Made by a program: the position numbers and the translations under genes
Assembly: GCA_963664435.2 (NCBI GenBank)
Contig: CAXXKM010000003.1
Coordinates: 1,248,001-1,312,000 of the forward strand
DNA from: Longimicrobiales bacterium
GTDB lineage: Bacteria; Gemmatimonadota; Gemmatimonadetes; Longimicrobiales; Gaopeijiaceae
DNA length: 64,000 nt
Direction: 5' to 3'
The notes under the pieces: model-generated
Told to the model about the DNA's origin: nothing
Databases searched by the model: none
What the model saw: the letters and a program-made list of their open reading frames with translations, nothing else
In this document: positions 836-19,310 of the stretch, in pieces
How the letters are laid out: each line of letters begins with the position of its first letter
Numbering within the stretch: the first letter of the stretch is position 1

Positions 836-2064
836 GGGTCCTCCCTGGGCGACTCACTCAGGCAAGGTGACGGGTGTGCCCACAGGTCCGCAACGTCAAA
901 AACAGACGGCACTACGACATTATCAGACACCTAAACCTGTAGGAATCAGAACTTCAATCTCCTGCGCAGGAGTCGTAACCCATGCGGCGCTCGCCGGTTT
1001 CGCGCTTTCTCCCTGTCATGCGGAGCGCTCTTGACATACCAGCTGATTGTCGGTCTCATTACCAATCTTTCTCTGTAATTGCCTGCTTGCCAGCGCAGAC
1101 ACTCAGGCTCATATATCAACCATATCAGGCTCATACTCCCTGCCCATAGGCGTCCACACCCATGCCCATCTCCCCCGTCATCGTCATTCCCGGGATCACC
1201 GCTTCGGACCTCCACGACGAGTACGAGCTGCCGCCCGAAGCGGTATGGACGACGGTCCTCAGGCGCCGCTACGACCGCGTCACGCTGCACCCGGAGGACC
1301 AGCGCTACGAACTGCGCGAGCCGGCCCGGGTCATGCCGCGCGGCCCCTTTCCGCTCATCTACGAGGACCTGATCGAGGAGCTGCGCGACGGGCTCTCCGA
1401 GGACCAGCCGGGTCCCGTGCCCGTGTTTCCCTTCGGCTACGACTGGCGCATGCCGCTGGACTGGACCGAGCAACGCCTGGCCGCGTTCGTGCGCGAAGTC
1501 ATCGACCGGACGCTGCTCATGCGGCACTACCGGGACGACGAGGCGTTTCGGAACAACCCCACTGTTTCCCTCATCGGCCACTCGATGGGAGGGCTGATCA
1601 TCGCCGGGTACGTCGAGAGTCTTGTCGCCGGGCGCATCCGGAGTCCCACGGGCAGCGGCGCCCTCGTCGACAAGGTCGTGACGCTGGGGACGCCCTTCCG
1701 GGGCTCGTACGAGGCGATCCTCAAGGTGGCCACGGGGACCAGCGAGCTCGGGGACGACTCGGGCAGGGCCCGGGAGCGGCGCATGGCGCGGATGACGCCC
1801 GCCCTCTACCACCTGCTCCCCGGGTCGGCGGGGCCGGTCGCGTCGCACGGCGGCATGGCGGTGAACTTCTTCCGGCCGGATGCGTGGCAGCCGAACGTGG
1901 TTCAGACCATCGAGCATCAGGTCCGCGAATGGGACGTGACCGGGGCGGAGCTGTTCCGGAAGATGCTGGACGAGGCGCGGGCGCACCGCGAGCGGATCTC
2001 GGGGTTGCGGCTACTGAATGGCGGGACGCCTGACGCGGCTGGGGCGTCGGATGACGGAGGGTCG

Positions 2065-2190
2065 GGAGATACGGGACCGTTAGGAGATACGGGACCGCCC
2101 GGAGATGCCGGACCGTTGGGAGATACGGCACCGCCAGGAGATACGGGACCGCCCGGAGATGCCGAAGCCCCCGGAGATGCGGGACCGCCA
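2065..2190 (+). repeat. 7 x 18-bp in-frame tandem repeat (GGAGATACGGGACCGCCC-like) encoding G-D-T/A-G-P-P/L
   Basis: Units start at 2065, 2083, 2101, 2119, 2137, 2155 and 2173. Confidence 0.95.
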
Positions 2191-2521
2191 GCCGTCGCCG
2201 TCCGCTCGGACGACTGGCTCGCCATCGCGGGGGTCGACTCGAAGACCCGCGTGAGCCTCAGGGTGGTGCGCGACGAGAACGGCTTTGCGCGATTCGACCT
2301 TCGGGGCGCGGAGCGACGCAACGAGTGGGACTCCGACATCGAGGGCAACCGGCGCGACACAGGCGACGGAACGGTCCCGCTGGAGGGCGCGATTCCGCCC
2401 TTCCTGGACGAGGCGCGCGTGGTGTGCGTCACACCCGGCGACTTCGGCTACTGGGAGATTCGCGACCGGGCGCTGACCGCCGCCGCGGGTTTTCACGGGC
2501 TGCTGCCCCGGATGAACATGC

Positions 2522-2530
2522 TGCACCGGC
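2522..2530 (+). repeat. attL core TGCACCGGC
   Basis: Identical 9-mer at 16387-16395; marks the point where lipase-like coding stops. Confidence 0.85.
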
Positions 2531-3019
2531 CGAATGGCAAATGCCGCAATCCCGGCGGGAAATCGTATAAAGTCATACAGGACTGCACGATCTGCGTTTC
2601 CTGCCGTTGGGCTCGACCCTGCTGGACCGTACCCCGAAAGCGGGAAAACGGGTTTGAATGGCGGGACTCCCGCCCGCCGCCTCTTCGCCGCCAGAGGTCA
2701 GTGGGGCGCCCTCGCTCGCCTTCTCGAAAAGCAAGATGGTTCAGGCGAATCACCGGTCGGTACTACCGAATCGTCGCTCCGGCAAGGCTCGCCACCGGGG
2801 TCACATCAACCCAGCAGGCGTGGGGCCGACTAGGAGGTAGACCGCCACGGTCCCGGACTACCGACCGGTGCGGAAGCGCCCTCCCGACCCCGGCTTGAAC
2901 CAAACCTCCGTCTTCCCGTCGGGACCCGCGCCCGATGGGAAGGCGGAGGGAACCGGCGCGGCGATCCCGCCACGCTCGCAGGCGTCGTGGCGCCGGGGGT
3001 TGCGCCCTGGGAACCCTCG

Positions 3020-3130
3020 CCCCCCGTCAGCGCCAGGTTCTCCGCGCCCGCGCCCCTTCGGCCGGTAGTGCCGCGACGAGCGGCTTAGCCCCACCAGCAC
3101 GCACAAGCGGGGCTTCATGGAAAGCAAGAT
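3020..3130 (-). pseudogene. Degenerate IS3-family transposase (OrfB N-terminus) fragment
   Basis: LSMKPRLCVLVGLSRSSRHYRPKG followed in a shifted frame by ENLAL resembles the typical IS3 'C.LLGLSRSS.YYRPKGES.ENLALM' segment. Confidence 0.45.
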
Positions 3131-3156
3131 AGCCTCCGCGAGAGCGCGCGTAAGAC

Positions 3157-4029
3157 TTAGTACACCCAAATACGAACACTCCAAGGGGCGTTCTGTGTGC
3201 CATCCGTGACATTCAGTCTCAGGTCGATCAAACCTGAGACCGGAGGCACGGAAATACGTATGTGGGGATCGAAGGGTGGGTCTGGATTCCAAGCCTGAAA
3301 CCGGCCATGGGGACGTGCCTCTGAGCCTTGAATGACACCGGATTCCTCCAGAAACCGCACGTCTGCGCCGCCACCTGTTGTCACTAGCGACTCTTTGCCC
3401 ATGCCCCACCCGTGGCTGATATGTACACGGCCTTCCTTCTCAACAACCAAAAATTTGCAGTGCGCAACGAACGAAACAGGCATTTCGATTTCCCGTGCTG
3501 GCCCAACTTGCGTCCAGTCACCATCCGCTTGCATATGCGAATAGTCGGGAAGGGGAATCGACACCGTAACAGATGTCGTAAGTGTGTCGCCAACATTATC
3601 CACGATGGTTACGGGCAGATCGTAAAGACCTGGAGTGGCCCAAGACAGTGTTCGTATTACAACGGGACTCCATGTCGGAGGCCATGTGCCACCGGAACCG
3701 CCCCATTGATAGCTAATCCTGCCATCGTCAACGAAACCAGATCCAAACGTAACATATGGCGGCGACCCCCCATACACCAGGGGGAGGGAAGTATGCAATC
3801 CCCAATTGGGTTTGTTCTCAGCTCCTTGGATGGTTGTACATGCTGGCGATAGAGGAAATCCGCCATTTGGGGTTGGTAGAAAGGAGCCCGTCGCGGACGA
3901 AACAAAGGTCAGGTCTTGCTGACGAGCTGACGAAAGGACCATCGTGGGCGCGGTGATGGTTTCCCCGGGTATGGGGTCGTTGGCGCAGGCGGCAACGACG
4001 AGAAGGGCGATGGCGACGCGCTGTAACAT
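3157..4029 (-). CDS. Hypothetical lipoprotein (element cargo)
   Basis: 290-aa ORF with an AAGGAGG RBS and a lipobox-like MLQRVAIALLVVAAC. Visibly less GC-rich than the flanking genes. Confidence 0.65.
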   Translation of the reverse strand: MLQRVAIALLVVAACANDPIPGETITAPTMVLSSARQQDLTFVSSATGSFLPTPNGGFPLSPACTTIQGAENKPNWGLHTSLPLVYGGSPPYVTFGSGFVDDGRISYQWGGSGGTWPPTWSPVVIRTLSWATPGLYDLPVTIVDNVGDTLTTSVTVSIPLPDYSHMQADGDWTQVGPAREIEMPVSFVAHCKFLVVEKEGRVHISHGWGMGKESLVTTGGGADVRFLEESGVIQGSEARPHGRFQAWNPDPPFDPHIRISVPPVSGLIDLRLNVTDGTQNAPWSVRIWVY

Positions 4030-4368
4030 TTTTCTTGGTGGCCTCCTTTTCGTCCGTTCCGAGGCTGGGCTGCAAGCTCACGGCTCGCCCTCGTTCTCGT
4101 CTTGGTCTGCGTTTCCCGCCGAATCGGGCTAGAGATTGCGGGCCGTGGCGGATGTACGCAAGTAGCTGGCAGGCGGTGCTGCGCGAGGCAGCCAACTCCC
4201 GGGGAATGCGAATGCGTCTCAGCCACGCTCTTGGCCCCATGCCGCGATTTGGTTCCGGCGCCCGCAGAACGCAGCAGTGTTCCGATGCCTGCGCGTCATT
4301 GCATGGCGGTGTCATTCCCAATGTGCTGTTGCCAAGCCCTGCGAGACTTGCTTGTTCCCGGGCTGCTC

Positions 4369-7300
4369 TCACCTCCTCCACGCGTAACCGTCCGGAATGC
4401 CCCGGCTGAACAGCGTTTCCAACCTCTGCCCGGCGGCCTGTCCCACCGCATCCGCCGCCGCCTGGGTCGCCGGAGCCGGATCCCGCAGGAATCCGCGCAC
4501 TTCTCCGGTTTGCGCGTCGCGAAGGATGGCCATCGGCTGGTCCGTGGTTTCGTCCAGCACGGCTGAGCCTCCGGGGCCGGATAGCGTGATGCTTGCCAGT
4601 TTGTCCCCCCAGCCCGGTCGGACAGGCAAGGCGAATACAAAGCTGGTCTCCTCACCCTCGGCGTCTCCGATGTGCGGCATATCGAAGGCAAACGAGAAGA
4701 CGGGTGTGCCATCAACGGTCGCACCCTCGATGGTATACTCCCCCCCGGCGACTGGAAGAGAGGGCACGGCGTCAACGACGAACGCGGGATCGAGGTACGG
4801 AACACCATCCTGATCCCGTCCACCCCAGATCAGAAGCGAACGAACGGGCACCGCCTCTGCGGCCATGGCCGCAGAGGCGGTGCCGCCGTTCGCAAGACGG
4901 TGGCTAAGTGCCTTGTTGAAAAAGAAATCGCTGGTCCAGTAGATCCCATGTGTGCAGTAGGACATGACGTCGGCGGCGTGCGGCGTCACCAACGCGTTCC
5001 GTCCGAAGTCGTACCCCCAGGCCCCGATGCTTCCGCCAAAATGCGGGAACCAGGGGTCGACCGTGCGGGGATTGCCACACGGTGCGTGCTTGAGCGAGAG
5101 GTTGTGCCCCAATTCATGGGCGATCGTGGAAGGGTTGCGCGTCGACATGCTCGCCCAGCCAGCGAGGCGGGCGACTCCCGTCGCCGCTGGGCTAGACGAG
5201 AATTCGTTACTATAGTTGGGTTGCCATACGCCCATCCAGTATCCCGAACCGCCCTCCATCACGCGCATCGCGTCTACCTGAGCCAATCTCCTGGAGATGT
5301 CCTGGGTCGATGTGATGACGGGTTGGCGCGCCGAGACAGCGAGTTCCGCTATCGGAAGTAGCATCCGCACGTCGCGGAGCAACTCGTGCCCGTCCGGATC
5401 CGCCGCCATTGCGGAAACGGACTCCACAACGGACGAGTCGGGCTCGGTTTCCCAGAGAAACGGGATAAGGGTCAGGCGCAAGGGCTGCACGGACCGGACG
5501 TCGATTGCCATGCGTCCTTCTTCGGGAATCCGCTTCGTGACTCCAAGCGCGGAGTCCAGCGTCCCTTCAGGATCGACTTCAATCACCATCTCCAAGCCTG
5601 GCACGATGACCCAGTCGGGAATCTCGGCGTTCGCCGACAGCGCAAGATCTCCTTCCATGACCTCTGAGGGGATGAGCCGGGTCGTCGCCGCGATATCGAC
5701 TGAGTGCCGTTCGGCCCCATCGACGAAGAAGGTGGCGCGGACATCGGGCATCGTCGCCGTGCCGGCCTGGGCCGCGGTCACGAAAACGCGCAGCAGCGCC
5801 GGCTTTCCGGCCAGGAGCGGCACGGGATCGTCCCATGACTGCACGCTCTGCGTCAGATACGCCGCCGCCCCACCGTCGCAACGTACCAGGTGGCGGTCGG
5901 CAATGCCCCGGAACCATGCGGCCCAAGCGGCATCCGGCGGCCAGCAGAGCCCGGTGCCTCCCGCCATGAGACGTTCGAGTCCTCCAATGGCCAGAATCTC
6001 GGAAGGCATCGGCCCGGCGAGGTCGGAGTTGTCCGCCAGAATCAGTTGATCTAGCAGGGTGAGGCTGCCGAATTCTGGAGGAACGGGACCGTTCAGCGCG
6101 TTGGATCGCAGGTCGAGATGCTCCAGGTTGGTGGCGCGCCCGAGTTCAGCGGGCAGAGCCCCGGAGAGTGCATTGTTGCCCAGATCCAGCGTGACCAGGC
6201 TGCCGAGACGGCCCAACTCACTCGGAATCGATCCAGAGAGTTGATTGTCGGAGAGCTCCAGCGCCCAAAGGTCGCCAGATCGCCCCAAGTCAGAAGGGAT
6301 CGATCCGGAGATCTCGTTGCCGGAGAGCCGGAGCTCCTGGAGACCGGCGAGGCCGCCGAGTGCCGAAGGAATGCTCCCGCTCAGTCGATTGCGGGAAAAG
6401 TCCACGGCGGACAGGCGGTCTAGCGTGCCAAGCTCGGGCGGAATGCGGCCCGTCAGTTGGTTATCAGCGAGCCGGATGGATATGAGCGCTGAGATCCTGC
6501 CGAGTTCCGAAGGAATGCTCCCGCTCAGTTGGTTGCCGACGAGTTCGAGCCGCTCGAGACGACTCAGATTGCCCAATGCGGCCGGAATGGAGCCTGAGAG
6601 GAAGTTCCATTTGAGGTCCAGCCTGGCGAGATCGGCGAGGTTGGCCAGTTCTTCTGGGATTTCGCCTGTGAGTTCATTATCCCTAAGACTGAGCTGCCGC
6701 AAAGGGACCAAGTCACCCAGCTCCGGCGGGATCGTCCCCGATATCCGGTTTCTGAAGAGGTCAAGTCCTCTCAACTCCGACAACCCGCCAAGCTCCGAAG
6801 GAATGCCGCCGTAGAGCTGGTTCCCCGCAAGGTCAAGCCACTCAAGATGGTCCAATTCACCCAACTCGATTGGGATCCGGCCGGACAACCCGTTGAACGG
6901 TAGCCGCAGTACGACGACCCGGCCGGCGGCATCGGTCTCCACACCGTGCCATTCGGCCAACGGTGCATCGGTGAGCCACCCCGTATTCTCGTTCCAGTTT
7001 CGGCCATCCGCATTCCGGTACAACAGCTCGAGAATGTCACGGTTCGTAAGAGGGGGACACGGCACTCCTGTCCCGGTGTGGCGCGGGATGCCGTTCAGCC
7101 AATCTTGGAAGCCGGCATCGTCCGCCACGCACAGGGACGTGCCCCGGTAGTCGAGCTCCTCCAGTTGCACCTCGGTCAGCGACAGAGGCAACCGGCCGGA
7201 CAAGGCGTTGTCCCCGATCCGCAGCTCCGTGAGGCTGGCCAGCAGGCCAAGCGCCTCCGGAACGTGGCCCGACAACGCGTTGCCGCTCAGATCGAGACCC

Positions 7301-9297
7301 GAGACCCGACCGATCGAATCCGTCCGCACGCCATGCCACCGGTCCAGGTTCTCGTCCTCCAGCCAGCCATCGGACCGCGTCCAGCCGGATCCGTTCGTGG
7401 CCTCGTGGAGGCTCTCCAGCGCGTCGGCATCGATCTCGTCGCAGAATGCGATATCCACCGCCCACTCGATGTTCCCGCGAGCCTCCACCTGCCGCGCCCA
7501 CTCCCTGAACTCGTCCGTCGCGGGCAGGCATACCCCCTCGGTTCGCCGGCAACCTATCGTCTGAAGTCTGTTCAGACCGATAAAACTCAACGGGAGGGAG
7601 CCCGTCAGGAGGTTGTCGGTCAAAGTAAGTCCTTCCAATGCAGCGAGGCTTCCGAGTTCCGTCGGCACCGCGCCCGTCAGTTCATTGTTGTTCAAATTCA
7701 GATTGCGCAGATGGGTCAGTTTCCCCAGCTCCGGCGGGATCGGACCTGTCAGTGCGTTACTCGACAGTGACAGGCTGGTCAGATTGGCAAGACCGCCCAG
7801 CTCCGGTGGGATCGGGCCCGTCAGACCGTTGTCATAGAGCCATAACCACCACAATCCCTCGATGTTGGCCAACTCTGGCGGAATCCGGCCTGTGAGGTTG
7901 TTCCCGTCAAGCAGCAGCCACCGCAGGTTGGCAAGGTTGGCCAGCTCCGGCGGGATCGGGCCCGCCAGATCGTTTTGCCGCAAGTTCAGATCGCGAAGTC
8001 CGGCAAGTCCGCCTAGCGATGGCGGAATCGTACCCGTCAGATTGTTCCATCCCAAATCAAGGTCTGACAACCGCACCAGATCGGCCAACTCCGGTGGGAT
8101 TGGGCCCGTCAGCTCGTTGTCGCGCAAACTAAGCACGCGCAGGTTGGAGAGGTCCCCGAGCTCTTGGGGAATTGTGCCGGTCAGGACGTTCCCTCGGAGG
8201 GAAAGTGTTTCGAGATTCGCAATTCCGCCGAACTCCGGCGGAATAACACCGAACAGTCGGTTCAAACCGAGGTTGAGATGCCGCAAGTTCGCAAGATTCC
8301 CCAGCTCCGAAGGAATGGTGCCCGTGACGGCGTTGATCCGGAGGCTGAGCACCTCCAGGGACGTGAGGCGCCCGAGTTCGGGCGGAATCGGACCCAGGAG
8401 GCCATGAGGCACTTGTTCCCGTCCTTCCCACACGCCGTCTAGACGAATGCCCACCACCCGCCCCGACGCGTCGGTCTCCACCCCGTACCACTCCCCCAAC
8501 GGCGCGTCGGTCAGCCAGTTGGTGTTGTCGATCCAATTCGGACCGTCGGTGGCCTCGTAGAGGGCTACCAGGGCGGTTCGGTCGGTATTCTCCACCGTTG
8601 TGACCTCGGCAGTGCCCGAGTATTCGCTCGCCGTCGCCGTGATCGTAGCCGTTCCTTCGTCCACTCCGGTCACCAACCCCGAGTCGTCCACCCGGGCCAC
8701 GAGCGTGTCGCTCGAAGACCAAACGAATTCCGTCACCGCCGCCACGCCGTGACCGTTCGCGTCGGTCGCCTCGGCCACCAGACGCACCGTGTCCCCGAAC
8801 GCCACCAGGGTGTCCGCCGCGGGCGACAAAACGACTGCGATCACCACCTGGGCCACGGTCACTGCCGCCGTGCCGGAGCCCGAGCCCGCCGTCGCGGTGA
8901 TCGTTGCGGTCCCGTTCCCCGCTGACGTCGCCAGCCCCGTCGCGTCCACCGACGCGACCGAAGCGTTGCTGCTCGCCCACGCGACGGCGGTTCCCGCCAT
9001 CACCTGCCCGTTCTGGTCGCGTACCTCGGCCGTGAACCGGGCCGTCTCTGCGAGGGCGCTCAGTGCGGCAGAACCTGGGCTGACCGCCACCGTGGTGGCC
9101 ACGGGAGTCGGTGGAGGAGCAGGCTCGACGGCGCCATCGCCGCAGGACAGGACCAGCACCGCGGTCGCGGCGATGGCCGAGATCGCGAAGCGCGCGCTCA
9201 AGCGTCCCGGTCGACCATCGCCCCGCCTCCGGCGAATGTGCCAACGGTGCATCCCTGCCCGACCATCTTCGGAAAGCCCTCTCGATTGCATGTCCAT
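4369..9297 (-). CDS. Large lipoprotein: Ig-like (Big_2) domains, plant-type leucine-rich repeat blocks and a C-terminal M66-like zinc metalloprotease
   Basis: LVLSCGDG lipobox; VAWASSNASVASVDATGL and WSSSDTLVARVDDSGLVT Ig repeats; many LxLxxNxLTGxIPPELGxL repeats with three cap motifs (ALYEATDGPNW...WYGV); HELGHNLSLKH and DVMSY. Start chosen from the AGGAG RBS; the ORF is open to 9342. Confidence 0.9.
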   Translation of the reverse strand: MDMQSRGLSEDGRAGMHRWHIRRRRGDGRPGRLSARFAISAIAATAVLVLSCGDGAVEPAPPPTPVATTVAVSPGSAALSALAETARFTAEVRDQNGQVMAGTAVAWASSNASVASVDATGLATSAGNGTATITATAGSGSGTAAVTVAQVVIAVVLSPAADTLVAFGDTVRLVAEATDANGHGVAAVTEFVWSSSDTLVARVDDSGLVTGVDEGTATITATASEYSGTAEVTTVENTDRTALVALYEATDGPNWIDNTNWLTDAPLGEWYGVETDASGRVVGIRLDGVWEGREQVPHGLLGPIPPELGRLTSLEVLSLRINAVTGTIPSELGNLANLRHLNLGLNRLFGVIPPEFGGIANLETLSLRGNVLTGTIPQELGDLSNLRVLSLRDNELTGPIPPELADLVRLSDLDLGWNNLTGTIPPSLGGLAGLRDLNLRQNDLAGPIPPELANLANLRWLLLDGNNLTGRIPPELANIEGLWWLWLYDNGLTGPIPPELGGLANLTSLSLSSNALTGPIPPELGKLTHLRNLNLNNNELTGAVPTELGSLAALEGLTLTDNLLTGSLPLSFIGLNRLQTIGCRRTEGVCLPATDEFREWARQVEARGNIEWAVDIAFCDEIDADALESLHEATNGSGWTRSDGWLEDENLDRWHGVRTDSIGRVSGLDLSGNALSGHVPEALGLLASLTELRIGDNALSGRLPLSLTEVQLEELDYRGTSLCVADDAGFQDWLNGIPRHTGTGVPCPPLTNRDILELLYRNADGRNWNENTGWLTDAPLAEWHGVETDAAGRVVVLRLPFNGLSGRIPIELGELDHLEWLDLAGNQLYGGIPSELGGLSELRGLDLFRNRISGTIPPELGDLVPLRQLSLRDNELTGEIPEELANLADLARLDLKWNFLSGSIPAALGNLSRLERLELVGNQLSGSIPSELGRISALISIRLADNQLTGRIPPELGTLDRLSAVDFSRNRLSGSIPSALGGLAGLQELRLSGNEISGSIPSDLGRSGDLWALELSDNQLSGSIPSELGRLGSLVTLDLGNNALSGALPAELGRATNLEHLDLRSNALNGPVPPEFGSLTLLDQLILADNSDLAGPMPSEILAIGGLERLMAGGTGLCWPPDAAWAAWFRGIADRHLVRCDGGAAAYLTQSVQSWDDPVPLLAGKPALLRVFVTAAQAGTATMPDVRATFFVDGAERHSVDIAATTRLIPSEVMEGDLALSANAEIPDWVIVPGLEMVIEVDPEGTLDSALGVTKRIPEEGRMAIDVRSVQPLRLTLIPFLWETEPDSSVVESVSAMAADPDGHELLRDVRMLLPIAELAVSARQPVITSTQDISRRLAQVDAMRVMEGGSGYWMGVWQPNYSNEFSSSPAATGVARLAGWASMSTRNPSTIAHELGHNLSLKHAPCGNPRTVDPWFPHFGGSIGAWGYDFGRNALVTPHAADVMSYCTHGIYWTSDFFFNKALSHRLANGGTASAAMAAEAVPVRSLLIWGGRDQDGVPYLDPAFVVDAVPSLPVAGGEYTIEGATVDGTPVFSFAFDMPHIGDAEGEETSFVFALPVRPGWGDKLASITLSGPGGSAVLDETTDQPMAILRDAQTGEVRGFLRDPAPATQAAADAVGQAAGQRLETLFSRGIPDGYAWRR

Positions 9298-10416
9298 CTC
9301 TCCTCGCCCTGCCCGCTTCGGTGTTCGGGCTTCCTGTCGCATCGGCCGCGCGCCGGACGTATCACGAGTTATTTAACAATCGTGATCATTGCGCGAGCTA
9401 TCGGCTCGTACGCATGAGATTACCGTGGCCGGAGAACAGCTGGCAAGGACGACCTACCGGTCACCAAGTTGCGTTCAATTCCCTAGCGAGCCTTCAGGGA
9501 GCGGGATGGGGCGTTCTTGCGAGCCGCTGGCGGCGGGGTCCAGCCGTTCGCGTGCCTTCTCGGACTACATCGGCCACGGCGGACAACAGGACGTTCCCCA
9601 CGGGTTGACGTCCTTGCGAACGGCTTTGCAGCGTTCCGGTTATGGAGACACTGAAGCAGCAGTTTCAATCGCACGCGAGCGAAGCCGCGGCCCACCTGCG
9701 CGGGCGGGTGTGGGCGCTCGGTGCCGAGGACAGCCGCCACCGGATCGGGAAGAATAGGGGCTCTGGGCGGCGCTTAGGCGACGGCGTGCGCGAGGGAACC
9801 CCAAGCCGGGATCCCCTCGTTGAAGACGCCGATGCGACGCGTTCAGCCGGAGCTTCCGCGGCCGCTCCGGACTGGCTTGTCGGACGCCGCTAACTAAGGA
9901 CGGGGAGCCAGCCGGACCCGCGCAAACCGGACGGCCATCCCGAAACCGCTCCACCACGGAGACTCCACGGGGGTCGCTCGGCAAGCCGCTGGCGGCGGCG
10001 TCCTTCGGCTGCTTTACGTTATCGAACATCCTCGAACGTTATCGGACAATAGGCGATTATCCGCGAGTTGACTCGTCTGCCAGCGACCCTTCACCGTTCG
10101 GGGATGGAGACGCTGGAACACTCGTTCAACGTGCCGATTAGGGCGCTCCTCGGGCGGGATGGAGAACCCGCGTCGCGCCTCCACTGGCGACGGGTGGCCG
10201 AACCCGAATCCGGCAACCCGTTGCCCCGTCGAGATGTGGGAAATGGCCTATTTCCCACTCGCTTGCGCGGCTTGCCGACACCGTGTTCGGGTTGATGTGC
10301 ATGGAGATCGTGACCAAACAGTTGGAGACCCCGCCGAGGAGCGTCCTCCGGTGTCGATTCGTTCCCCGTCCCAGCGGCTCCGCGAGCCGAGAAGGCTCGG
10401 AAGAGGGGGACCTGCG

Positions 10417-11352
10417 ATGATCGCCCACCTGAAGGGACGGGAACAGGCGCTGGAACCCTTGGGCCTGACCGGCCGCCGGGCCGAATGGATCGCGCTGGCG
10501 AGCCTGCACGGCGGCGTGTTCACCCGCGCGCAGCTTTCGGACTGGCTCGGGGCCAGCCGCTTCAAGGTGCTCCGGCTCATTCAGGCCCTGACGGAGCGAA
10601 GGCTGGTGACCGAGGAGACGGTCGGAGGTCTCAAGGTCTGCCGGGTCTGCGCGCGCGGCATCTACCGGGCGCTCGCTGCCGAGGACATCCGCCACCGAAG
10701 GATTACCTCGACCGAGGTGGTCATTCGCCGCCTGCTCTCTTTCGACTACGTGATCGAGCATCCGGACCTGCCCTGGCTCCCGACCGAGTCGGAGAAGGTG
10801 GGTGCGTGCGAGGCGCTCGGCATCGACCGCTCGCTCATGCCCGTCCGGGTCTATCGGGGCGCGGTCGGCGGTGCGCGGCGCTACTTCCCGCGCGGGATGC
10901 CCGTGGCGCTGGACTCTTGCCGCGCCGTGTTCGTCCACGCCGATCCCGGCTACGACACCTCGACCGCGCTCCACTCGTGGCGGGACCGGCACCGGAGGCT
11001 CTGGGAGGCGCTTAGAGAGGACGGCTTGTCGGTCGAGGCCATCGGGGTCGCAGGCGGCCGGAGGGAACTCGTTCGAGCGCGGACGATCCTCGGGAACTGG
11101 ACCAATGCGGACACGGCCCAACGTTCCGTGCATCCGCCTGGGACCGTCGCCGCGGCCCGGCGCGAGGCCGCACGGGTCGAGAACGCCATCCGGGGCATGG
11201 ACGACGCGACGGTCGAGGAACTGGGCGGTCTCAACGGCTGCCTTCGCCGCCTCGTCGAGATGAGGGAACTGCTCCGTTCGGCCCGTCCCGAAGGCACGAT
11301 CGACGGCCATTCGGTATGGCGGTCGAGCCGTCTTTCCGGAGTCCGAATTTGA
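10417..11352 (+). CDS. Element-associated protein of unknown function with an N-terminal winged-HTH-like region; candidate relaxase/replication protein
   Basis: GAGGGGG RBS then MIAHLKGREQALEPLGLTGRRAEWIALASLHGGVFTRAQL...RRLLSFDYVIEHP...LPTESEKV. Co-oriented upstream of the T4CP and integrase. Function is inferred from context only. Confidence 0.6.
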   Translation: MIAHLKGREQALEPLGLTGRRAEWIALASLHGGVFTRAQLSDWLGASRFKVLRLIQALTERRLVTEETVGGLKVCRVCARGIYRALAAEDIRHRRITSTEVVIRRLLSFDYVIEHPDLPWLPTESEKVGACEALGIDRSLMPVRVYRGAVGGARRYFPRGMPVALDSCRAVFVHADPGYDTSTALHSWRDRHRRLWEALREDGLSVEAIGVAGGRRELVRARTILGNWTNADTAQRSVHPPGTVAAARREAARVENAIRGMDDATVEELGGLNGCLRRLVEMRELLRSARPEGTIDGHSVWRSSRLSGVRI

Positions 11353-11527
11353 GTGCCGTTCGGGGGAGCCCGTTGCCGATCCGGAGGTGTGAAATCGACA
11401 TCGGGGTGCTTGTGCACGGAAATGCCGCTGTGTTGTGCGGAACGTGGGTTCCGCAAGTCTCCGGACGGCTTGGGGTTGGGCCACGGCCCGCGGATCGCCG
11501 GTGCCGATCCGGGTCTCCGGGCCGTGG

Positions 11528-11543
11528 ACGGGAGCGACCCGGC
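11528..11543 (-). repeat. Unoccupied inverted copy of the IS110 target site
   Basis: ACGGGAGCGACCCGGC is the exact reverse complement of the reconstructed empty site GCCGGGTCGCT|CCCGT (11608-11618 + 12973-12977). Confidence 0.9.
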
Positions 11544-11639
11544 CCTTCGGGATGCCTGGTGCGGCATCGGGGCGGTTCGGCATGTGCAGGCCCATGCCGC
11601 CCTCCCCGCCGGGTCGCTTGTCTCTTCCATTCTTGGAGA

Positions 11640-11866
11640 TCCCTGCTTGATTTGCAGGTCCGGGTCACGGGGATGGCCCGGTGTGCTGGATGCCCGCAGA
11701 GGCGAGCGGAGCGAGCCGGAGCGGGCATCCAGCACAGACGGTGGTCGGGCCGTCGGGTCGCTGGCCGCAAGGGCCGTACGGGAGTTTGGTCGCCACCGTC
11801 TTTCCCACGTCCTGAATGGATACTTGAGCATCGAGGCTCGCACGACAAGCACAGGAGAAAGGGAAA
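11640..11866 (+). ncRNA. IS110 bridge RNA (5' hairpins, target-binding loop and donor-binding loop); ends approximate
   Basis: Target-loop stem 11737-11744/11793-11800 encloses LTG CGGGTCGCT (11754-11762) and RTG GTACGGGAG (11776-11784). Donor-loop stem TTTCCC..TCCTG/CAGGA..GGGAAA encloses LDG ATGGATACT (11816-11824) and RDG GACAAG (11844-11849). Confidence 0.88.
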
Positions 11867-11870
11867 GCAC

Positions 11871-12872
11871 ATGAGCACCAGCCGTCGCACCGTCGGGATC
11901 GACATCTCCAAGGACTGGCTCGACGCCTTCGCGGCGCCCGAGGGGAGAGCGTCCCGGTTCTCGAACGACAGGGCCGGCTTCCGGAAACTGATCGCTTGGA
12001 TCGGCTCCGGGATCGACCGGATCGCGTACGAACCCTCCGGAGCCTTCCACCGCGACCTCGAGGACACCCTCCTGAAGGCCGGACTCCCCATGTATGCGAT
12101 CAACCCCTTCCAAGTCCGGTCCTTCGCCCGGTCCCTCGGCCAGCGAGCCAAGACCGATGCCGTGGACGCCCGGATGCTGGCCATCATGGCGTCGGCCATC
12201 GAAGACCTACGCCCGGCGCAGGCGAAGTCCGAGGGGCAGCGCGACCTTGCCGAGCTCCAGCAGATCCGCGACGCGCTGCGCAAGGACCGGACCGCCACCT
12301 CCAACCGCGGCAGGCACTTGCGCACTCCCGTGGGCAAGCGGGTCACCAGGCAGAGGCTGAGGCAGATCGAGCGCCAGCTGAAGCTCATCGACGCAGAGAT
12401 CCGGCAACGGGTGGAGGAGGAGAAGGCGCTGGAGCGCCGGGCCGAGATCCTGACCTCGATCCCGGGCATCTCGGACATCACCGCCGCGGGACTGATCGTC
12501 CACTTGCCGGAGCTCGGCACCCTCACCGGCCCCCGCGCCGCCAGCCTCGCCGGACTGGCCCCGGTCACCCGGGAGTCCGGACACTGGAAGGGACGCAGCT
12601 TCATCCAGGGCGGCAGGCGCCGGGTGCGCCAGTTGCTGTACATGCCCGCAGTGGCTGCGGTCCAGCACAATCCCGACCTCGGGCGCAAGTACGAAGCGCT
12701 CGTGGCTCGGGGCAAGCCGCCCAAGGTCGCCCTGACGGCCGTGATGCGGAAGCTCCTCATCCTCGCCAACGCCCTGGTGCAGCAGGACCGCACTTGGACG
12801 GCGCACCCGCCGCGGGAATACTCCTGCCCGGCCTTCCCGACGCCCAGCCCGGCGGGGAGCGTTCACGGATGA
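11871..12872 (+). CDS. IS110-family recombinase/transposase (333 aa)
   Basis: VGIDISKDWLD, AYEPSG and KTDAVDA (DEDD RuvC-like); SIPGI, AGLAPVTRESG (catalytic Ser context) and GKPPKVALTAVMRKL. Confidence 0.95.
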   Translation: MSTSRRTVGIDISKDWLDAFAAPEGRASRFSNDRAGFRKLIAWIGSGIDRIAYEPSGAFHRDLEDTLLKAGLPMYAINPFQVRSFARSLGQRAKTDAVDARMLAIMASAIEDLRPAQAKSEGQRDLAELQQIRDALRKDRTATSNRGRHLRTPVGKRVTRQRLRQIERQLKLIDAEIRQRVEEEKALERRAEILTSIPGISDITAAGLIVHLPELGTLTGPRAASLAGLAPVTRESGHWKGRSFIQGGRRRVRQLLYMPAVAAVQHNPDLGRKYEALVARGKPPKVALTAVMRKLLILANALVQQDRTWTAHPPREYSCPAFPTPSPAGSVHG

Positions 12873-12958
12873 TCGAGCCGGGCAAGAACGGGCACCGCAA
12901 CGGAAGCATCGCGAGGGGCGCTGCGAGACACGTCGCTCCAAGAAAATCGGGCATCCGC

Positions 12959-12964
12959 TTGACA
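12959..12964 (+). promoter_or_regulatory. -35 box (TTGACA) in the IS110 right end; pairs with -10 CATTCT (11628-11633) only in the circular form
   Basis: The junction reads TTGACA-TGGATACT-TGTCTCTTC-CATTCT, a 17-bp spacer. Confidence 0.8.
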
Positions 12965-13010
12965 TGGATACTCCCGTACCAACGATCCCTCCGGGAAGGG
13001 GGCTTTGCCG

Positions 13011-15032
13011 ATGAGGAACTCGACGGTCGCCGTCATCGGTGCCGCCATCGGAACGGCGGGCGCGCACGCGCTCGAACTGCCGTTCCCTGCCATCGGCGAC
13101 AACCCCTATCTCGACCTGATCGCCCACAACGATCCGGGCATCCACGCCGCCATCCGCATCTGGTACTACGCCTCGCCCGGCGTCGCGGTCATCCTCGCGG
13201 GCGCGCTCGTCCTCTCGGTCTGGCGGGTCTGGTTGCAGCCCCTCTTCAGGTTCCGGCGCAAGGGCAAGTTGCCCAGGTGGCCCACCTCGCCGAACGACGA
13301 CGCACCCTCTCTGGTAATCGGCGAGACGCACCACCCGACCGTGCCGCGCGAGAGCGAGCGGCCCTCGTGGCTCGTCGTCCCCGAAAAAGGGCTCTACACG
13401 GGCGTGCTCGTCGTCGGGGCCGTCGGCACCGGCAAGACCACGGCCTGCATGTACCCGTTCGCCAGGCAGCTTCTCTCCTGGCGCGCGGATGATCACCGCA
13501 AGCGCGCGGGCGCGCTTGTGCTGGAAGTCAAAGGAGACTTCTGCCATCAGGTTCGGAGCATCCTTGGCGAGGCCAGACGAGAGGAGGACTACCTCGAAAT
13601 CGGGCTCGGCGGCTCGTGGCAGTGGAACCCGCTGGACGATCCGCTCCTCGACTCCTACTCGGCGGCCTACGGCGTCGCGTCGCTCATCAACCAACTCTTC
13701 GGCAAGAGTAGGGAACCGTTCTGGCAACAGGCGTACACGAACCTGGTGCGGTGGATCATCGAGGTCCACCGCATCCTGCCGGGCGGCTGGGTCACGCTCC
13801 GGGACATCTACCGCTGCACCGTGGACGCGGAACTCCTGGGGCGGAGGATCGGCGAGGCCCGGAGGCTTGCGGACCGGCTCCGTCCGAAGCGCGCCGTCAT
13901 CTCGCACGAGGACATGATCGCCCACCCGCAGGCGCTGGAGGAGTGGGCGTGGGAGCGCGTGCCCGGCACCGGCAGCGTGGGGTGCCGTCTCGACCCGGAA
14001 CTGGGATCGCGGCTCGACGAACTTGGCGTCGCCTTCGAAACCGAAGAGGCCGACGGAGGCGCGGGCCGGGAGATCGCCGAACAGGTCGAGGCCATCGAGC
14101 GATGGTACTCCCATGACTGGATGGCGCTGGACGCAAAGCTCCGCACCTCGATCGTCGAGGGCATCAGCGTCTTCCTCTCGCTCTTCGACCTGCCGGACGT
14201 GGCCGGGGTGTTCTGCCCGCCGCCACCCACCGAGACTCCGTCCGCCGAGAGCAACGAAACCAATAGCAACAGCCATCCCGTGCCGGGACTTCGCCGGAGG
14301 CTGCCGCCGCTCGCGCAGCTGATCGACGAAGGCAAGGTCCTCGCCCTGAACATGCCCGCCGGAGCGAACCCGGCGCTCGCACGCGCCATCGGCGTGCTGC
14401 TCAAGAATGCCTGGATGCAGGCGCTGCTCCGGCGTCCGGCCGAGGCCGCCCGCCGTCCCGATCGCTACATGCGGCCCGCCGTGTTCATCTGCGATGAGTA
14501 CCAAGCGTTTGCGACCGTCGGACAGGACGATCCGTCCGGCGACGAGAAGGCGTTCGCGCTCACGCGGCAGTGCCGCTGCATCCCGATCGTCGCCACGCAG
14601 TCGATCTCGTCGCTCCGCTCCGTGCTTCCCTCAGGCGAGGCGTGGCGCACGCTCGTCCAGACGCTCCGCACCCGGATCTTCCTGTCGCTGTCCGACGAGG
14701 CGTCGGCCCGGATCGCGTCCGAGATGTGCGGCTCCGTCATGAAGACGCGGGCCTCACACACGTTCACCGAGACCACGGGCAGGCCCGAGTTCTCGCTCCT
14801 CTCCGGTCGCGCCGGAGGGGGACGGGGCACCATCGGCGCGAGCAAGTCGTTCCGGCAGCAGAGGGAGCCGGTGTTCACGCCGCGCGAGTTCGGGCTGCTC
14901 GCCAACTACCAGGCGATCTGCCTCCCCTACGATGGCGTGAAATCGCTTCCGGCCCGCCGCGTCTACCTGAAGCCCCACTACCTGCCGAGGGAGACGGGCT
15001 ACTGGCGGCTTCGCGAGAAGGGGCGGATATGA
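13011..15032 (+). CDS. Type IV coupling protein (VirD4/TraD family)
   Basis: N-terminal TM segments, Walker A GAVGTGKT, LVLEVKGDF, WNPL, EPFWQQA, Walker B FICDEYQ and IVATQSIS. Confidence 0.88.
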   Translation: MRNSTVAVIGAAIGTAGAHALELPFPAIGDNPYLDLIAHNDPGIHAAIRIWYYASPGVAVILAGALVLSVWRVWLQPLFRFRRKGKLPRWPTSPNDDAPSLVIGETHHPTVPRESERPSWLVVPEKGLYTGVLVVGAVGTGKTTACMYPFARQLLSWRADDHRKRAGALVLEVKGDFCHQVRSILGEARREEDYLEIGLGGSWQWNPLDDPLLDSYSAAYGVASLINQLFGKSREPFWQQAYTNLVRWIIEVHRILPGGWVTLRDIYRCTVDAELLGRRIGEARRLADRLRPKRAVISHEDMIAHPQALEEWAWERVPGTGSVGCRLDPELGSRLDELGVAFETEEADGGAGREIAEQVEAIERWYSHDWMALDAKLRTSIVEGISVFLSLFDLPDVAGVFCPPPPTETPSAESNETNSNSHPVPGLRRRLPPLAQLIDEGKVLALNMPAGANPALARAIGVLLKNAWMQALLRRPAEAARRPDRYMRPAVFICDEYQAFATVGQDDPSGDEKAFALTRQCRCIPIVATQSISSLRSVLPSGEAWRTLVQTLRTRIFLSLSDEASARIASEMCGSVMKTRASHTFTETTGRPEFSLLSGRAGGGRGTIGASKSFRQQREPVFTPREFGLLANYQAICLPYDGVKSLPARRVYLKPHYLPRETGYWRLREKGRI

Positions 15033-15130
15033 AGCGCGAGGCACGAGCCGATCACGCAACTGGCGGACAAGCCGCTTCCCCGCGAGCTTTCGGGCAGGCA
15101 GATCGTGCAGTCCATCTTCGGAGGAATCGA

Positions 15131-16294
15131 ATGATGGCACGCACGAAACGAGGTCGGCGCAGCTACAGCGCCGGAGAATGGGGCCGGAACCGGGTCCGGG
15201 TGTTTCCGGATCCGAAAACCGGCCTGCTCCAGATCGAGTGGCGGGAGAACGGTCGCAGGCTGAGCCGGTCGCTGAAACACCGCGATTGGGCTCGCGCGAA
15301 ACGGCAGGCGGATGAAGCCGCCGCGGGCTTCGCGATGTACGAGCCCAACGGCAAGGCCGAAGCCGAGCCCGAGCCGCTCACCCTGGAGAAGCTTTTTGAC
15401 ATCTACCGGGAAGAGGTGACGCCCACCAAGGGTGAGCCCACCCAGTGGCACGACAAGGCCGCGATGCGGATGTTTCTCGGGTTCTTCGGAATAAGCCGAA
15501 ACCCGGCGACGCTGTCGCAACGGGATTGGGATCGGTTCATCCGGGCGCGGCGGTCGGGTAGGATCGGACCGAGCGGAAAGCCGGTGTCCGACCGGACCAT
15601 CGAACACGACCTGAAGTTCCTGATCGCCGTCTTCAATTGGGCGGCCAAGTCGAGGGACGAGCAGGGTCGTTTGCTCCTTGAGTCGAACCCACTCAAAGGG
15701 CTGAAGGCGCCGACGGAGAAGAACCCCACCCGGGTCGTGATGTCCGACGAGGACTATCAGGCGCTTCTTGAAGTATCTCGGCAGGTCGATTGGCGGTTCC
15801 ACGTCGCGCTCGTGCTCGCACACGAGACCGGACACCGCATCGGTGCCATCCGCCACCTGCGGTGGTCTGACATTAGTCTTGAGGTAGGGACTATCCGATG
15901 GCGTGCTGAGCACGAGAAGACCGGTTACGAGCACCGAACGCCGGTGACCGCAGAGGCGCTTGCCGTGTTGGAAGAAGCCGCGAGACGCAGACCGGGAGTC
16001 GAAGATGCTCCGGTGTTGCCCACGCCTACGGATAGCTCAAGATGCTTGAGCCGCTCGCTGAGCTACGCTTGGTGGAACAGGGCGCAGGAACTCGCACGGC
16101 TGGAGCCGAAACCTGGCAGGGGCTGGCACTCGCTGAGGCGCAAGTTTGCTTCGGACCTCATGAACCAGCCCCTCAAGGTGCTGTGTGAACTCGGAGGCTG
16201 GAAGACGGCCCACACCGTGCTCCGGTGCTATCAGAGGGCGGACGAGGCACAGCTGAGGGAGGCGCTCGACAGTCGTCGCCGAATTCGGGCCTGA
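15131..16294 (+). CDS. Tyrosine recombinase/integrase
   Basis: HETGHRIGAI (Arg), EKTG (Lys), WHSLRRKFAS (HxxR) and LGGWKTAHTVLRCYQ (Trp, Tyr); N-terminal arm-binding-like region; GGAGG RBS. Confidence 0.93.
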   Translation: MMARTKRGRRSYSAGEWGRNRVRVFPDPKTGLLQIEWRENGRRLSRSLKHRDWARAKRQADEAAAGFAMYEPNGKAEAEPEPLTLEKLFDIYREEVTPTKGEPTQWHDKAAMRMFLGFFGISRNPATLSQRDWDRFIRARRSGRIGPSGKPVSDRTIEHDLKFLIAVFNWAAKSRDEQGRLLLESNPLKGLKAPTEKNPTRVVMSDEDYQALLEVSRQVDWRFHVALVLAHETGHRIGAIRHLRWSDISLEVGTIRWRAEHEKTGYEHRTPVTAEALAVLEEAARRRPGVEDAPVLPTPTDSSRCLSRSLSYAWWNRAQELARLEPKPGRGWHSLRRKFASDLMNQPLKVLCELGGWKTAHTVLRCYQRADEAQLREALDSRRRIRA

Positions 16295-16386
16295 GCCCAT
16301 TTGGCGGGAATGGAATAGCGGGAGTCCGGTCGGTTGCACTCGCTAGTCTAGTATTAGCAACGGGATATGAACTTGTGTGTATCTGT

Positions 16387-16508
16387 TGCACCGGCTCATC
16401 CTCCGCTTCCTGCTGGACCGGGGCGATCCCTACGGCAACACCTGGGGGCGGCGCCTGCCGGGGGTGATGCGGTGGAATCCCCCGCTGGAGCTGGCGGAGA
16501 AGGGCTGA
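16387..16508 (+). pseudogene. Displaced C-terminus of the lipase gene (LHRLILRFLLDRGDPYGNTWGRRLPGVMRWNPPLELAEKG*), beginning with the attR core
   Basis: Starts with TGCACCGGC, has GC-rich codon usage, and joins 1162-2530 in frame to give a 493-aa protein. Confidence 0.85.
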
Positions 16509-16733
16509 AGTCGACCCGACCCCTGCGCCGGACCGCGCTCCCCTCAACCAAGTGCACCCGAAAATGACCGAGGAGTGAGCGTTAATGGCTGATCCGTCCT
16601 CGGCGTGACGCTAAGTCCATCAGGAAACGTGCTTTGCCACGCATGGCATCCTGATTTGACATGGTTTCGGGCGGGGGATACCGTCACTTGTCGGGTTGTC
16701 GTCCCCGGCCCCCCCTCGAACCCCCGTGCGCTC

Positions 16734-17708
16734 ATGATCGCGTTGTACTATGACACACGTGATTTGCGGGACCGGATCGAAGGGTTGCTGGCCGACGCGG
16801 AGCTGTATTCCACGCTGGACCGCGACGAGTTTCAATCGCTCATCGCCGTGACGGACGTCGGCATCGCCGGATTGCAGCGCTGTTCGAGTGCCGATGTCGC
16901 CTGGCTTCGAGGGGCGTTCGGCCAGGGGTTCGCCAGGCCTTCCTGCGTCGTGGTGACGCCGCTGTCGCTGGCTCGCCTCCAGCGGCTCCGCTCGGTCGAG
17001 TCGCACCGGTTTCAGGTCGTGTGGGAAGAGGAAGCGCACGATCATCTCAGGCCGACGCTGGGCCGGGTCAACCTCCTCCACCGGGATCCGCTGCGGCTTC
17101 TCGGCCGTCGCATGCTCTGGGCCGGTGCACTCCACTGGTCCATGGTGAAGGCGGTCGAGCGCATCTGCAGGGTCTCGGACGAGTGGCGATCCGGCCCCCC
17201 GGCGAAATCGGTCCGGGATCTCGCGGAGGACATCGAATTACCCCCCGAGACCTTCCGCCGTTACTGGAAGGAGTACATGCCGCTTCGGTGCGGTCCCAAG
17301 CAGCTCCTCAGCTGGGCGCTGCTCATATGGGCCCTTGGCGAGCGGCCGAAGACTCGATGGGACGCGATCGCCGGCCGGGCCCGTGTGCGCCGCCGCACCC
17401 TGGAGCGACACAGTGTGCGCCTGGTGGGGTGCACGCTCTCGACTGCGGCCCGCGAACCGGCCCTGGTTCGGCGCCGCTTCCGGCGGTGGGTCTCGGAGGT
17501 GTCGTACGTGAGCCCGCCTGTCGTCCCCCCGCTCCTGTCGTCCATGCCGCGTCCGCGCGACACCCGCATCCAGCGTCAACGGGACGACGTCGTCGGCTCG
17601 TCCGGTCTCTTTGCCGCCGGCCGGCGCTGGTCGGTGCTGCCGGGTTCACCGGGCCGCCGGAACATGCCGGCGGATTTCGTTGCCCAGGCCATGATGGCCG
17701 GGCAGTAG
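16734..17708 (+). CDS. Hypothetical protein with a possible AraC-like HTH
   Basis: Long ORF; SVRDLAEDIELPPETFRRYW and WDAIAGRARVRRRTLER resemble two HTH segments. Confidence 0.5.
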   Translation: MIALYYDTRDLRDRIEGLLADAELYSTLDRDEFQSLIAVTDVGIAGLQRCSSADVAWLRGAFGQGFARPSCVVVTPLSLARLQRLRSVESHRFQVVWEEEAHDHLRPTLGRVNLLHRDPLRLLGRRMLWAGALHWSMVKAVERICRVSDEWRSGPPAKSVRDLAEDIELPPETFRRYWKEYMPLRCGPKQLLSWALLIWALGERPKTRWDAIAGRARVRRRTLERHSVRLVGCTLSTAAREPALVRRRFRRWVSEVSYVSPPVVPPLLSSMPRPRDTRIQRQRDDVVGSSGLFAAGRRWSVLPGSPGRRNMPADFVAQAMMAGQ

Positions 17709-18911: not shown

Positions 18912-18947
18912 GGTCATGGATGTTGTATTTAACCAACATACATGACC
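18912..18947. promoter_or_regulatory. Inverted-repeat operator upstream of the hipBA-like operon
   Basis: GGTCATGGATGTTG-N8-CAACATACATGACC (13/14 match) in an AT-rich stretch, with TAAAAT just before the ATG at 18969. Confidence 0.6.
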
Positions 18948-18968
18948 TTTGAGCAGGGTAAAATATAC

Positions 18969-19310
18969 ATGCCTGTCGGACGCAGGACTGCATCGTCCCC
19001 GCCAGCCGCAGTCGACGGGGCCCTGAGACGGCTGGGGCGCAACATCCGCATCGCTCGCTTGCGCCGGCAGCTGCGCATCCAGGACCTGGCCGAGCGCATG
19101 GGGGTTTCGCGGTTCACGGTCGCCGACCTGGAGAAGGGCAAACCGGGCACGTCGGCAAGCGCCTACTTCGGTGCGCTCTGGGCCCTCGGCCTGCTCGGCG
19201 ACGCGGAGGCCCTCGCCGATCCGGATCACGACGAGGAAGGCCGAGTCCTGGAGAGTGCCCGCGCCCCCCGGCGCGCCGCCCGTCCCGGACGCCTCGACAA
19301 TGACTTCTGA
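18969..19310 (+). CDS. XRE-family HTH antitoxin (HipB-like)
   Basis: LGRNIRIARLRRQLRIQDLAERMGVSRFTVADLEKG; overlaps the HipA start. Confidence 0.85.
   Translation: MPVGRRTASSPPAAVDGALRRLGRNIRIARLRRQLRIQDLAERMGVSRFTVADLEKGKPGTSASAYFGALWALGLLGDAEALADPDHDEEGRVLESARAPRRAARPGRLDNDF

Follow-up and report, generated by a model that had tools for sequence, protein, structure and literature searches.

A 13,865-bp island carrying its own tyrosine integrase interrupts a hydrolase gene within codons 454–456 in a 64,000-nt stretch of the genome of a Longimicrobiales bacterium (assembly GCA_963664435.2, here G000; the whole stretch analysed is called the window), and the same site is occupied by the same integrase clade in three other genomes. 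We consider it likely that the insertion inactivates the enzyme as a tolerated side effect and does not act as a regulated switch. The boundaries of the island, its empty site, the recurrence at one codon, the integrase clade, the fixed architecture of the ends and the lack of a replacement 3′ end are direct observations.

Boundaries of the island and its natural empty site

Within the window, the + strand holds the direct repeat TGCACCGGC just twice, at 2522 and 16387, the copies lying 13,865 bp apart; the repeat cannot be extended in either direction. Joining the flanks at this repeat gives a frame of 493 aa, against 578 aa in the integrated state; 456 aa are common to both and the tails differ (37 vs 122 aa). 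A first-pass annotation of this DNA had proposed both the 9-bp repeat (2522–2530 and 16387–16395) with its in-frame join and the exchange of the last 37 residues for 122 element-derived codons, and both are borne out by the coordinates, the join also by a natural empty site. On its own the 9-mer is weak evidence, with 92 copies across G000. The empty junction, which the annotation had suggested seeking in reads, is present in contigs from three studies (runs X7, X9 and X13), which join 2521 to 16387 and skip exactly 13,865 bases, the short side of the joint being 255 letters. An intact 493-aa protein (P0001) is 97% identical to the N-terminal part and has the C-terminus LILRFLLDRGDPYGNTWGRRLPGVGDWNPPLELAEKG, and aligning homologues with the reconstituted protein, again as proposed, showed that the lost tail type (LILRF...NTWGR-like) is kept in 112 of the 120 homologue clusters among the matches listed; of the remaining clusters, four end at the same codon and carry element-like tails, one ends 19 residues later and three are frameshifted. 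We trust the 9-bp boundaries because of these empty-site contigs, the intact tails of P0001 and the homologues, and an intact integrase gene ending 92 bp before the right copy.

Single contigs of X1 and X3 span the left attachment site (attL, to 2589) and the right one (attR, 16133–17200) with no other letters, and contigs of X6 bridge both sites too, which rules out misassembly as the source of the occupied form. Strands are most likely exchanged over the 7-mer TGCACCG rather than the whole 9-mer, the final GC being common to element end and host, since across the family a 7-mer lies at fixed offsets and repeats are often of 7 bp only (see below). Precise excision would restore the gene, in that the in-frame join equals the natural empty site; the excision step itself we infer. 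Compared with the X13 empty allele, the displaced tail carries a 1-base deletion and a 1-base insertion five bases apart (16466–16471), with the frame kept (MR for GD). Since the named homologues are Gemmatimonadota or Longimicrobiales records and many runs with matches are labelled sponge metagenome, the host is probably a sponge-associated member of the Gemmatimonadota. Among the matches listed, no RNA dataset carries the locus.

Recurrence at one codon

The insertion sites of related integrases were compared, as the first-pass annotation had advised, and the same codon proved to be occupied in G012, G017 and G316. Within the genus, attR lies there in 3 of 19 genomes (G000, G012, G017) and attL in two (G000, G012); in a second genus both ends are at this codon in 1 of all 53 genomes (G316), whether or not they carry the gene. 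The four integrases form one clade (support 96/90) in a tree of 70 rows, comprising one per target class plus that of G316 and using integrase residues from 47 on. Their sister (100/99), an 86%-identical integrase in G009, sits inside a DUF222 gene with the overlap TCCTGAG and the flank GCTCGTC. In G316 the overlap reads TCCACCG at both ends and matches the codons of its own host.

A metagenome pattern scan for occupied attR gave two matches, both by chance, and a scan of the genome collection gave eight, namely two occupied sites at loci already counted, three intact genes and three chance matches. The order-wide attL pattern had three matches besides G000 in 301 genomes, none shown as an insertion; two are intact genes and the third was not inspected.

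The integrase family and its conserved ends

Integrase matches number 28 in G000 and 278 in the genus as a whole, where 18 of 19 genomes are positive, with identities of 70–87%. The left end is conserved, as are GCGGGA repeats at both ends (Table 1), which are putative integrase arm sites. When offsets of 40–90 nt after the second arm were searched in G000 for a 7-mer also present at an upstream left end, it lay at 69–72 nt in nearly all paired elements, and one match at 64 nt came from a misplaced arm call. In six genomes (G000, G005, G009, G010, G011 and G014), 58 of 111 right ends could be paired, 47 of the 58 at the exact offsets, the 7-bp identity being itself part of the pairing rule in this set. 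These 58 pairs show 32 different overlaps; in 13 of them the repeat is no longer than 7 bp, and in 46 it does not exceed 12 bp. An open-frame test over the 58 empty sites carries no information at 68% GC, and no count was taken from it. Paired elements measure 4–60 kb. Among the sites targeted by the family are tRNA anticodon loops, a palindromic repeat, protein genes and the integrase gene of the family itself. A quick tree of 94 rows has target classes tracking integrase clades, with overlaps that vary in some clades at one constant right flank.

The largest clade (31 of 94 integrases; G000, G005, G009, G010, G014 and others) targets the palindrome AACCCTGA-CGT(A/T)ACG-TCAGGGTT, which has the shape of a recombinase site. 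Members also insert into each other's integrase genes, near codons 45–58, and into the integrase leader, giving nested and tandem arrays (G000:C2:112768-129337; G316:C61, L242). In most members the left-end motif, within 2546–2615 here, has an inverted copy just before the integrase start (15098–15112 here). Within the left-end inverted repeat, G-T mismatches outnumber A-C ones (111 vs 30 of 1088 cells) and one pair covaries, a weak hint that the left end may form an RNA hairpin, possibly pairing with the integrase leader; protein-binding sites would explain the pattern equally well. We found no description of this family in Gemmatimonadota or sponge symbionts in a literature search that left subscription papers mostly outside, and TIGER/Islander may already map such islands.

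The integrase

Residues R235, K262, H332, R335, W356 and Y366, which by motif we take to fill the R-K-H-R-H/W-Y catalytic roles, are invariant in an alignment of 48 integrases. The model comprises N-terminal strands (11–49) and a helix (52–63), four core-binding helices within 84–172 and then the catalytic domain, and its best fold match is full-length lambda Int (E 4e-9), so that by its predicted structure the protein is a lambda-type, arm-binding (heterobivalent) tyrosine integrase. Identity to solved integrases is only 14–18%, and searches of PDB, phages and plasmids gave no sequence match.

In 7-residue windows over 46 representatives, one per overlap, the most variable windows are 306–312, 283–289, 100–106 and 66–72, and the most variable single residues 312, 315 and 158. 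Windows 306–312 and 100–106 lie at the starts of predicted helices 307–320 and 101–118, and residue 158 is inside helix 153–172. In Cre, candidate specificity residues are found in helices B and D and in the J-K loop (PMC6486577), and by analogy the variable patches may correspond to these. The accessible part of PMC8138268, which supplies a domain scheme for tyrosine integrases, does not mention the term Gemmatimonad-.

Effect on the host hydrolase

The interrupted gene had been called a lipase with Ser, Asp and His motifs upstream of the cut. The position of the triad stands, and the name can be refined: the Pfam LCAT match is above the cut-off, and the predicted fold matches lysosomal phospholipase A2 (PLA2; 4x97; Z 20.5, root-mean-square deviation 3.7, 290 aligned, residues 2–465 on 3–379), so that on this model the product is an LCAT/lysosomal PLA2-like alpha/beta hydrolase. 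Ser141 (1582–1584), Asp402 (2365–2367) and His445 (2494–2496), to which we assign catalytic roles by LCAT-type motifs, are invariant in 94 homologues and all lie upstream of the cut. The cut itself falls after Arg456, inside a predicted helix (453–463) that is the last of the core after His445, and since the aligned core reaches residue 465, about nine aligned residues are lost. Six invariant residues (F461, D467, W473, G474, P486 and L489) go with the tail. The replacement is 122 residues long in G000, where it begins with proline, and 3 residues long in G012, P0004, P0049 and P0112. Because the cut lies in the predicted last core helix of the fold, the enzyme is probably inactivated although its triad survives.

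To judge from the genomes compared, the hydrolase gene is dispensable, since neither part was matched in 3 of 18 relatives (G004; G006, 100% complete; G015, 67% complete), the gene carries a nonsense codon in G007, and in G011 another family member, oppositely oriented, interrupts it at codon ~122. The G011 insertion is a 20.6-kb element (G011:C9:228903-249495; L022, L023) with the overlap CGCATGA, and a second hydrolase gene copy in that genome is frameshifted. Among the 19 genomes an insertion at codon ~122 was found in G011 alone; P0112, P0116 and P0129 start at the Met of that codon, possibly at contig ends. That the G011 integrase arose separately is not established (approximately unbiased test, p 0.156). 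The hydrolase also contains a collagen-like G-D-T/A-G-P-P repeat (2040–2195), predicted to be disordered, whose length varies between strains.

Other features of the element and its neighbourhood

Table 1. Features at and within the island (window coordinates)
Feature	Position	Strand	Remarks
5′ part of LCAT/LPLA2-like hydrolase gene (predicted), codons 1–456	1162–2528	+	Pfam LCAT PF02450, E 2e-7; fold match lysosomal PLA2
attL 7-bp overlap TGCACCG (most likely)	2522–2528	+	52 nt before conserved left-end motif, as in other family members; visible repeat to 2530
122 element-derived codons fused to truncated hydrolase gene	2529–2898	+	Not conserved
Conserved left end: inverted repeat around motif GACTGCACGATCTGC (2581–2595) and pair of GCGGGA arm-like repeats (2639–2667)	2529–2667	+	Consensus of 136 left ends
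Cargo open reading frame (ORF), 290 aa, no family	3157–4029	-	Pfam
1657-aa Ig-like/leucine-rich-repeat protein	4369–9342	-	Pfam Big_2, LRR_8, LRR_14
Conserved 397-aa ORF, weak winged-helix match	10159–11352	+	All Pfam matches below cut-off
IS110-family insertion sequence, transposase 11871–12872	11617–12970	+	Pfam, blastn/tblastn; joint 11616–12971 in contigs
VirD4/TraD-like coupling protein	13005–15032	+	Pfam TraG-D_C, TrwB_AAD_bind
Inverted copy of left-end motif, just before integrase start	15098–15112	-	
Tyrosine integrase, 386 aa	15134–16294	+	Pfam PF00589, E 2e-16
Right-end pair of GCGGGA arm-like direct repeats	16303–16325	+	Overlap begins 70 nt after start of second repeat
attR 7-bp overlap TGCACCG (most likely)	16387–16393	+	Visible repeat to 16395
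Displaced 3′ end of hydrolase gene, final 37 codons and stop, still in frame	16394–16508	+	In-frame join, P0001

The cargo has a GC content of 63%, against 68–70% in the flanks. Its 1657-aa protein also gives a marginal Peptidase_M66 match (20.8 bits vs a cut-off of 20.6). The 397-aa ORF, for which sub-threshold winged-helix matches and unnamed Atlas clusters are the only matches, always adjoins the coupling-protein gene in sibling elements and is possibly a mobilisation protein. The IS110 copy, which has two identical copies elsewhere in G000, sits between this ORF and the coupling-protein gene, and a sibling element on G000:C2 has an identical copy nearby in the opposite orientation. A coupling protein is present with no mating-pore genes among the annotated ORFs, and Pfam recognised no relaxase among the element proteins. 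Two intergenic stretches that were inspected hold no convincing small ORF for an excisionase, no systematic search having been made; at the element ends we found neither a sigma-70 promoter nor an Rfam match.

Beside the hydrolase gene, an ORF without family (16605–17708) has three paralogues in G000, one of them about 4 kb before the window start. Outside the element lies a helix-turn-helix and HipA-like gene pair, a HipBA-type toxin–antitoxin module (18942–20562). Elsewhere in the genome, G000:C2:689401-692178 holds 17 tRNA genes within 2.8 kb.

Discussion

The first-pass annotation had left a choice between low-specificity integration and a reversible excision switch on the lipase. A switch would mean that the host or the island excises under control to turn the hydrolase on, as with skin in sigK, and it is conceivable: one clade keeps targeting the hydrolase gene across two genera without a replacement end, a pattern that PMC10111431 treats as usually understandable as regulated gene integrity, all four occupied genomes retain an intact displaced tail, and the integrase is intact in G000, G012 and G017. 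Nothing that we tested supported it, however, and we regard it as unlikely. The site is occupied patchily, in 3 of 19 genomes; the same 90% cluster includes five more full-length members, all intact; and 8 of the 13 same-genus loci read at the hydrolase site have the exact overlap, yet are empty. The cargo differs among G000, G012 and G017, the G316 integrase is cut by a nested element, the hydrolase gene has been lost or broken by other routes in relatives, and sibling elements split many other genes likewise. Contigs of X1 and X3 run unbroken over both attachment sites, X5 has no joint, and neither an empty site nor the attP circle junction, which the annotation had also proposed to seek, appears among the joints listed for X1, X3, X5 and X6, in contigs that drop rare variants; of the two predicted junctions, only attB was thus met with, and in other runs. 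It is improbable, too, that the site persists as a harmless landing pad where the truncated enzyme stays usefully active. The triad is spared and the loss from the aligned core is small, but most of the predicted last core helix and a tail with its invariant residues are gone, and the replacement tails are unrelated, whether of 3 or 122 residues.

That family members can insert at almost any matching 7-mer, and reached the hydrolase by chance, we hold to be very unlikely. The diversity of overlaps, the 28 members in one genome and the differing flank in G316 would suit it, and near-identical integrases with the overlap TGCGGTA lie at unlike flanks in G000 and G005, so that some clades are loose. 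Yet TGCACCG occurs 786 times in G000 (15 times with GCTC, twice with GCTC(A/G)TC), and all four clade integrases are at one codon in two genera, a recurrence in G012, G017 and G316 that contradicts low specificity. Targeting guided by nucleic acid, in which an RNA or DNA segment of the element pairs with the target flanks, appears extremely unlikely. Near-identical integrases do have very different targets, a right-end ATGAAC-like stretch resembles the host left flank, and the left end may fold as RNA; against this, 32 permutation tests over 31 target classes, covering the ends and the 120 nt before the integrase, gave no match of an end to its own flank (best p 0.014, uncorrected), and the ends have no Rfam counterpart. 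The guide-like matches CCTGCTGGACCG (left end) and ATGAAC (right end) were rejected, both being family motifs present in elements with other targets.

Several points also weigh against our preferred reading, an integrase-directed insertion that is tolerated. Besides the unoccupied loci that have the exact overlap, G000 has a second TGCACCG.GCTCGTC site, likewise empty. The ends in G012 and G316 lie on different contigs and attL was not found in G017, so these elements are not shown whole; 53 of the 111 right ends are without a partner, and nesting of elements may have led to some wrong pairs. The integrase model is of mediocre quality (predicted template modelling score, pTM, 0.47), and the variable windows 283–289 and 66–72 fall outside the predicted DNA-contact helices. 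The right flank in G316 is CATGATC, not GCTCATC, and the five sites are alike in no more than about CRTG to the left and T.RTC to the right; from this flank and the overlap TCCACCG it follows, at the level of sequence, that flank reading is loose and that the overlap adapts.

For the tolerated insertion we suggest the following mechanism. A lambda-type integrase bound to GCGGGA arm repeats would swap strands over 7 bp of overlap, which have to match the target, while its own variable helices would read a few flanking bases. DNA encoding the conserved motif NM(L/V)HR(L/M)I would offer a near-constant target across species, much as a tRNA gene does, and the overlap could be rewritten to suit another host, as TCCACCG in G316, or another gene, as TCCTGAG in the G009 DUF222 gene. 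The circle may be mobilised via the coupling protein and a helper conjugation system. Exact restoration of the gene upon excision would then reflect the chemistry rather than any demonstrated regulation.

Measured against the definition of an integrative mobilizable element (IME), the island is alike in its integrase, VirD4-like coupling protein, variable cargo, 4–60 kb size range and lack of mating-pore genes, and differs in having no recognised relaxase and in that G000 has six coupling-protein copies for about 28 integrases. The integrase shares arm-binding, core-binding and catalytic domains with lambda Int, HK022 Int and mv4 Int, and the family shares with mv4 Int a 7-bp overlap with degenerate flanks; according to bioRxiv 10.1101/2023.11.06.565760, the mv4 overlap is free in sequence as long as attP and attB agree. 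Unlike the lambda-type phage systems, this element is non-phage, has about 28 paralogues in G000 with clade-specific targets and often shows no identity beyond 7 bp. Phage L54a, as described in PMC12540744, inserts site-specifically into the Staphylococcus aureus lipase gene geh and renders the cell lipase-negative. This negative lysogenic conversion resembles our case as a site-specific insertion into a lipase gene; here, however, a non-phage island with a coupling protein is involved, lipase family and phylum are different, and the loss of activity is predicted. The regulated gene integrity concept, as set out in PMC10111431, refers to an integrase clade repeatedly splitting one protein gene with no replacement sequence in attP. 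Such elements (skin in sigK, comK prophages, helper-embedded phage-inducible chromosomal islands) are alike in just this, and differ in that here there is no sign of controlled excision, developmental context or species fixation.

The annotation was right that a protein gene serves as target and that no replacement 3′ end is supplied. The choice of a protein gene instead of a tRNA gene is not unusual, given that 43.4% of TIGER/Islander islands lie in coding sequence (PMC12424338), and PMC12884075 places many attB sites in protein genes. The single insertion is thus ordinary, islands in coding genes being common and a lipase-splitting phage long known, and the interest lies mainly in the integrase family. 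What the insertion contributes is a clean case of an integrase keeping a protein-coding target across genera while its overlap adapts, together with an 86%-identical sister enzyme that has moved to another gene; and dozens of integrase/target pairs make target change testable via three short patches and the overlap.

It is possible, though doubtful, that the family amounts to a natural library of reprogrammed tyrosine integrases: hundreds of enzymes, 70–87% identical, within one bacterial family, their clades retargeted by three DNA-contact patches (~100–106, 158 and 306–315) and a rewritable 7-bp overlap, in a move away from tRNA anticodon loops and towards conserved protein motifs, this active-site helix among them. 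If so, the protein-to-target code would be readable from genomes and usable to aim integrases. In the boldest form of this proposal, the hydrolase-targeting clade would also act by excision as a switch for an enzyme with which a sponge symbiont modifies host lipids, and regulated excision, if true, would constitute a new gene-integrity switch in an uncultured symbiont.

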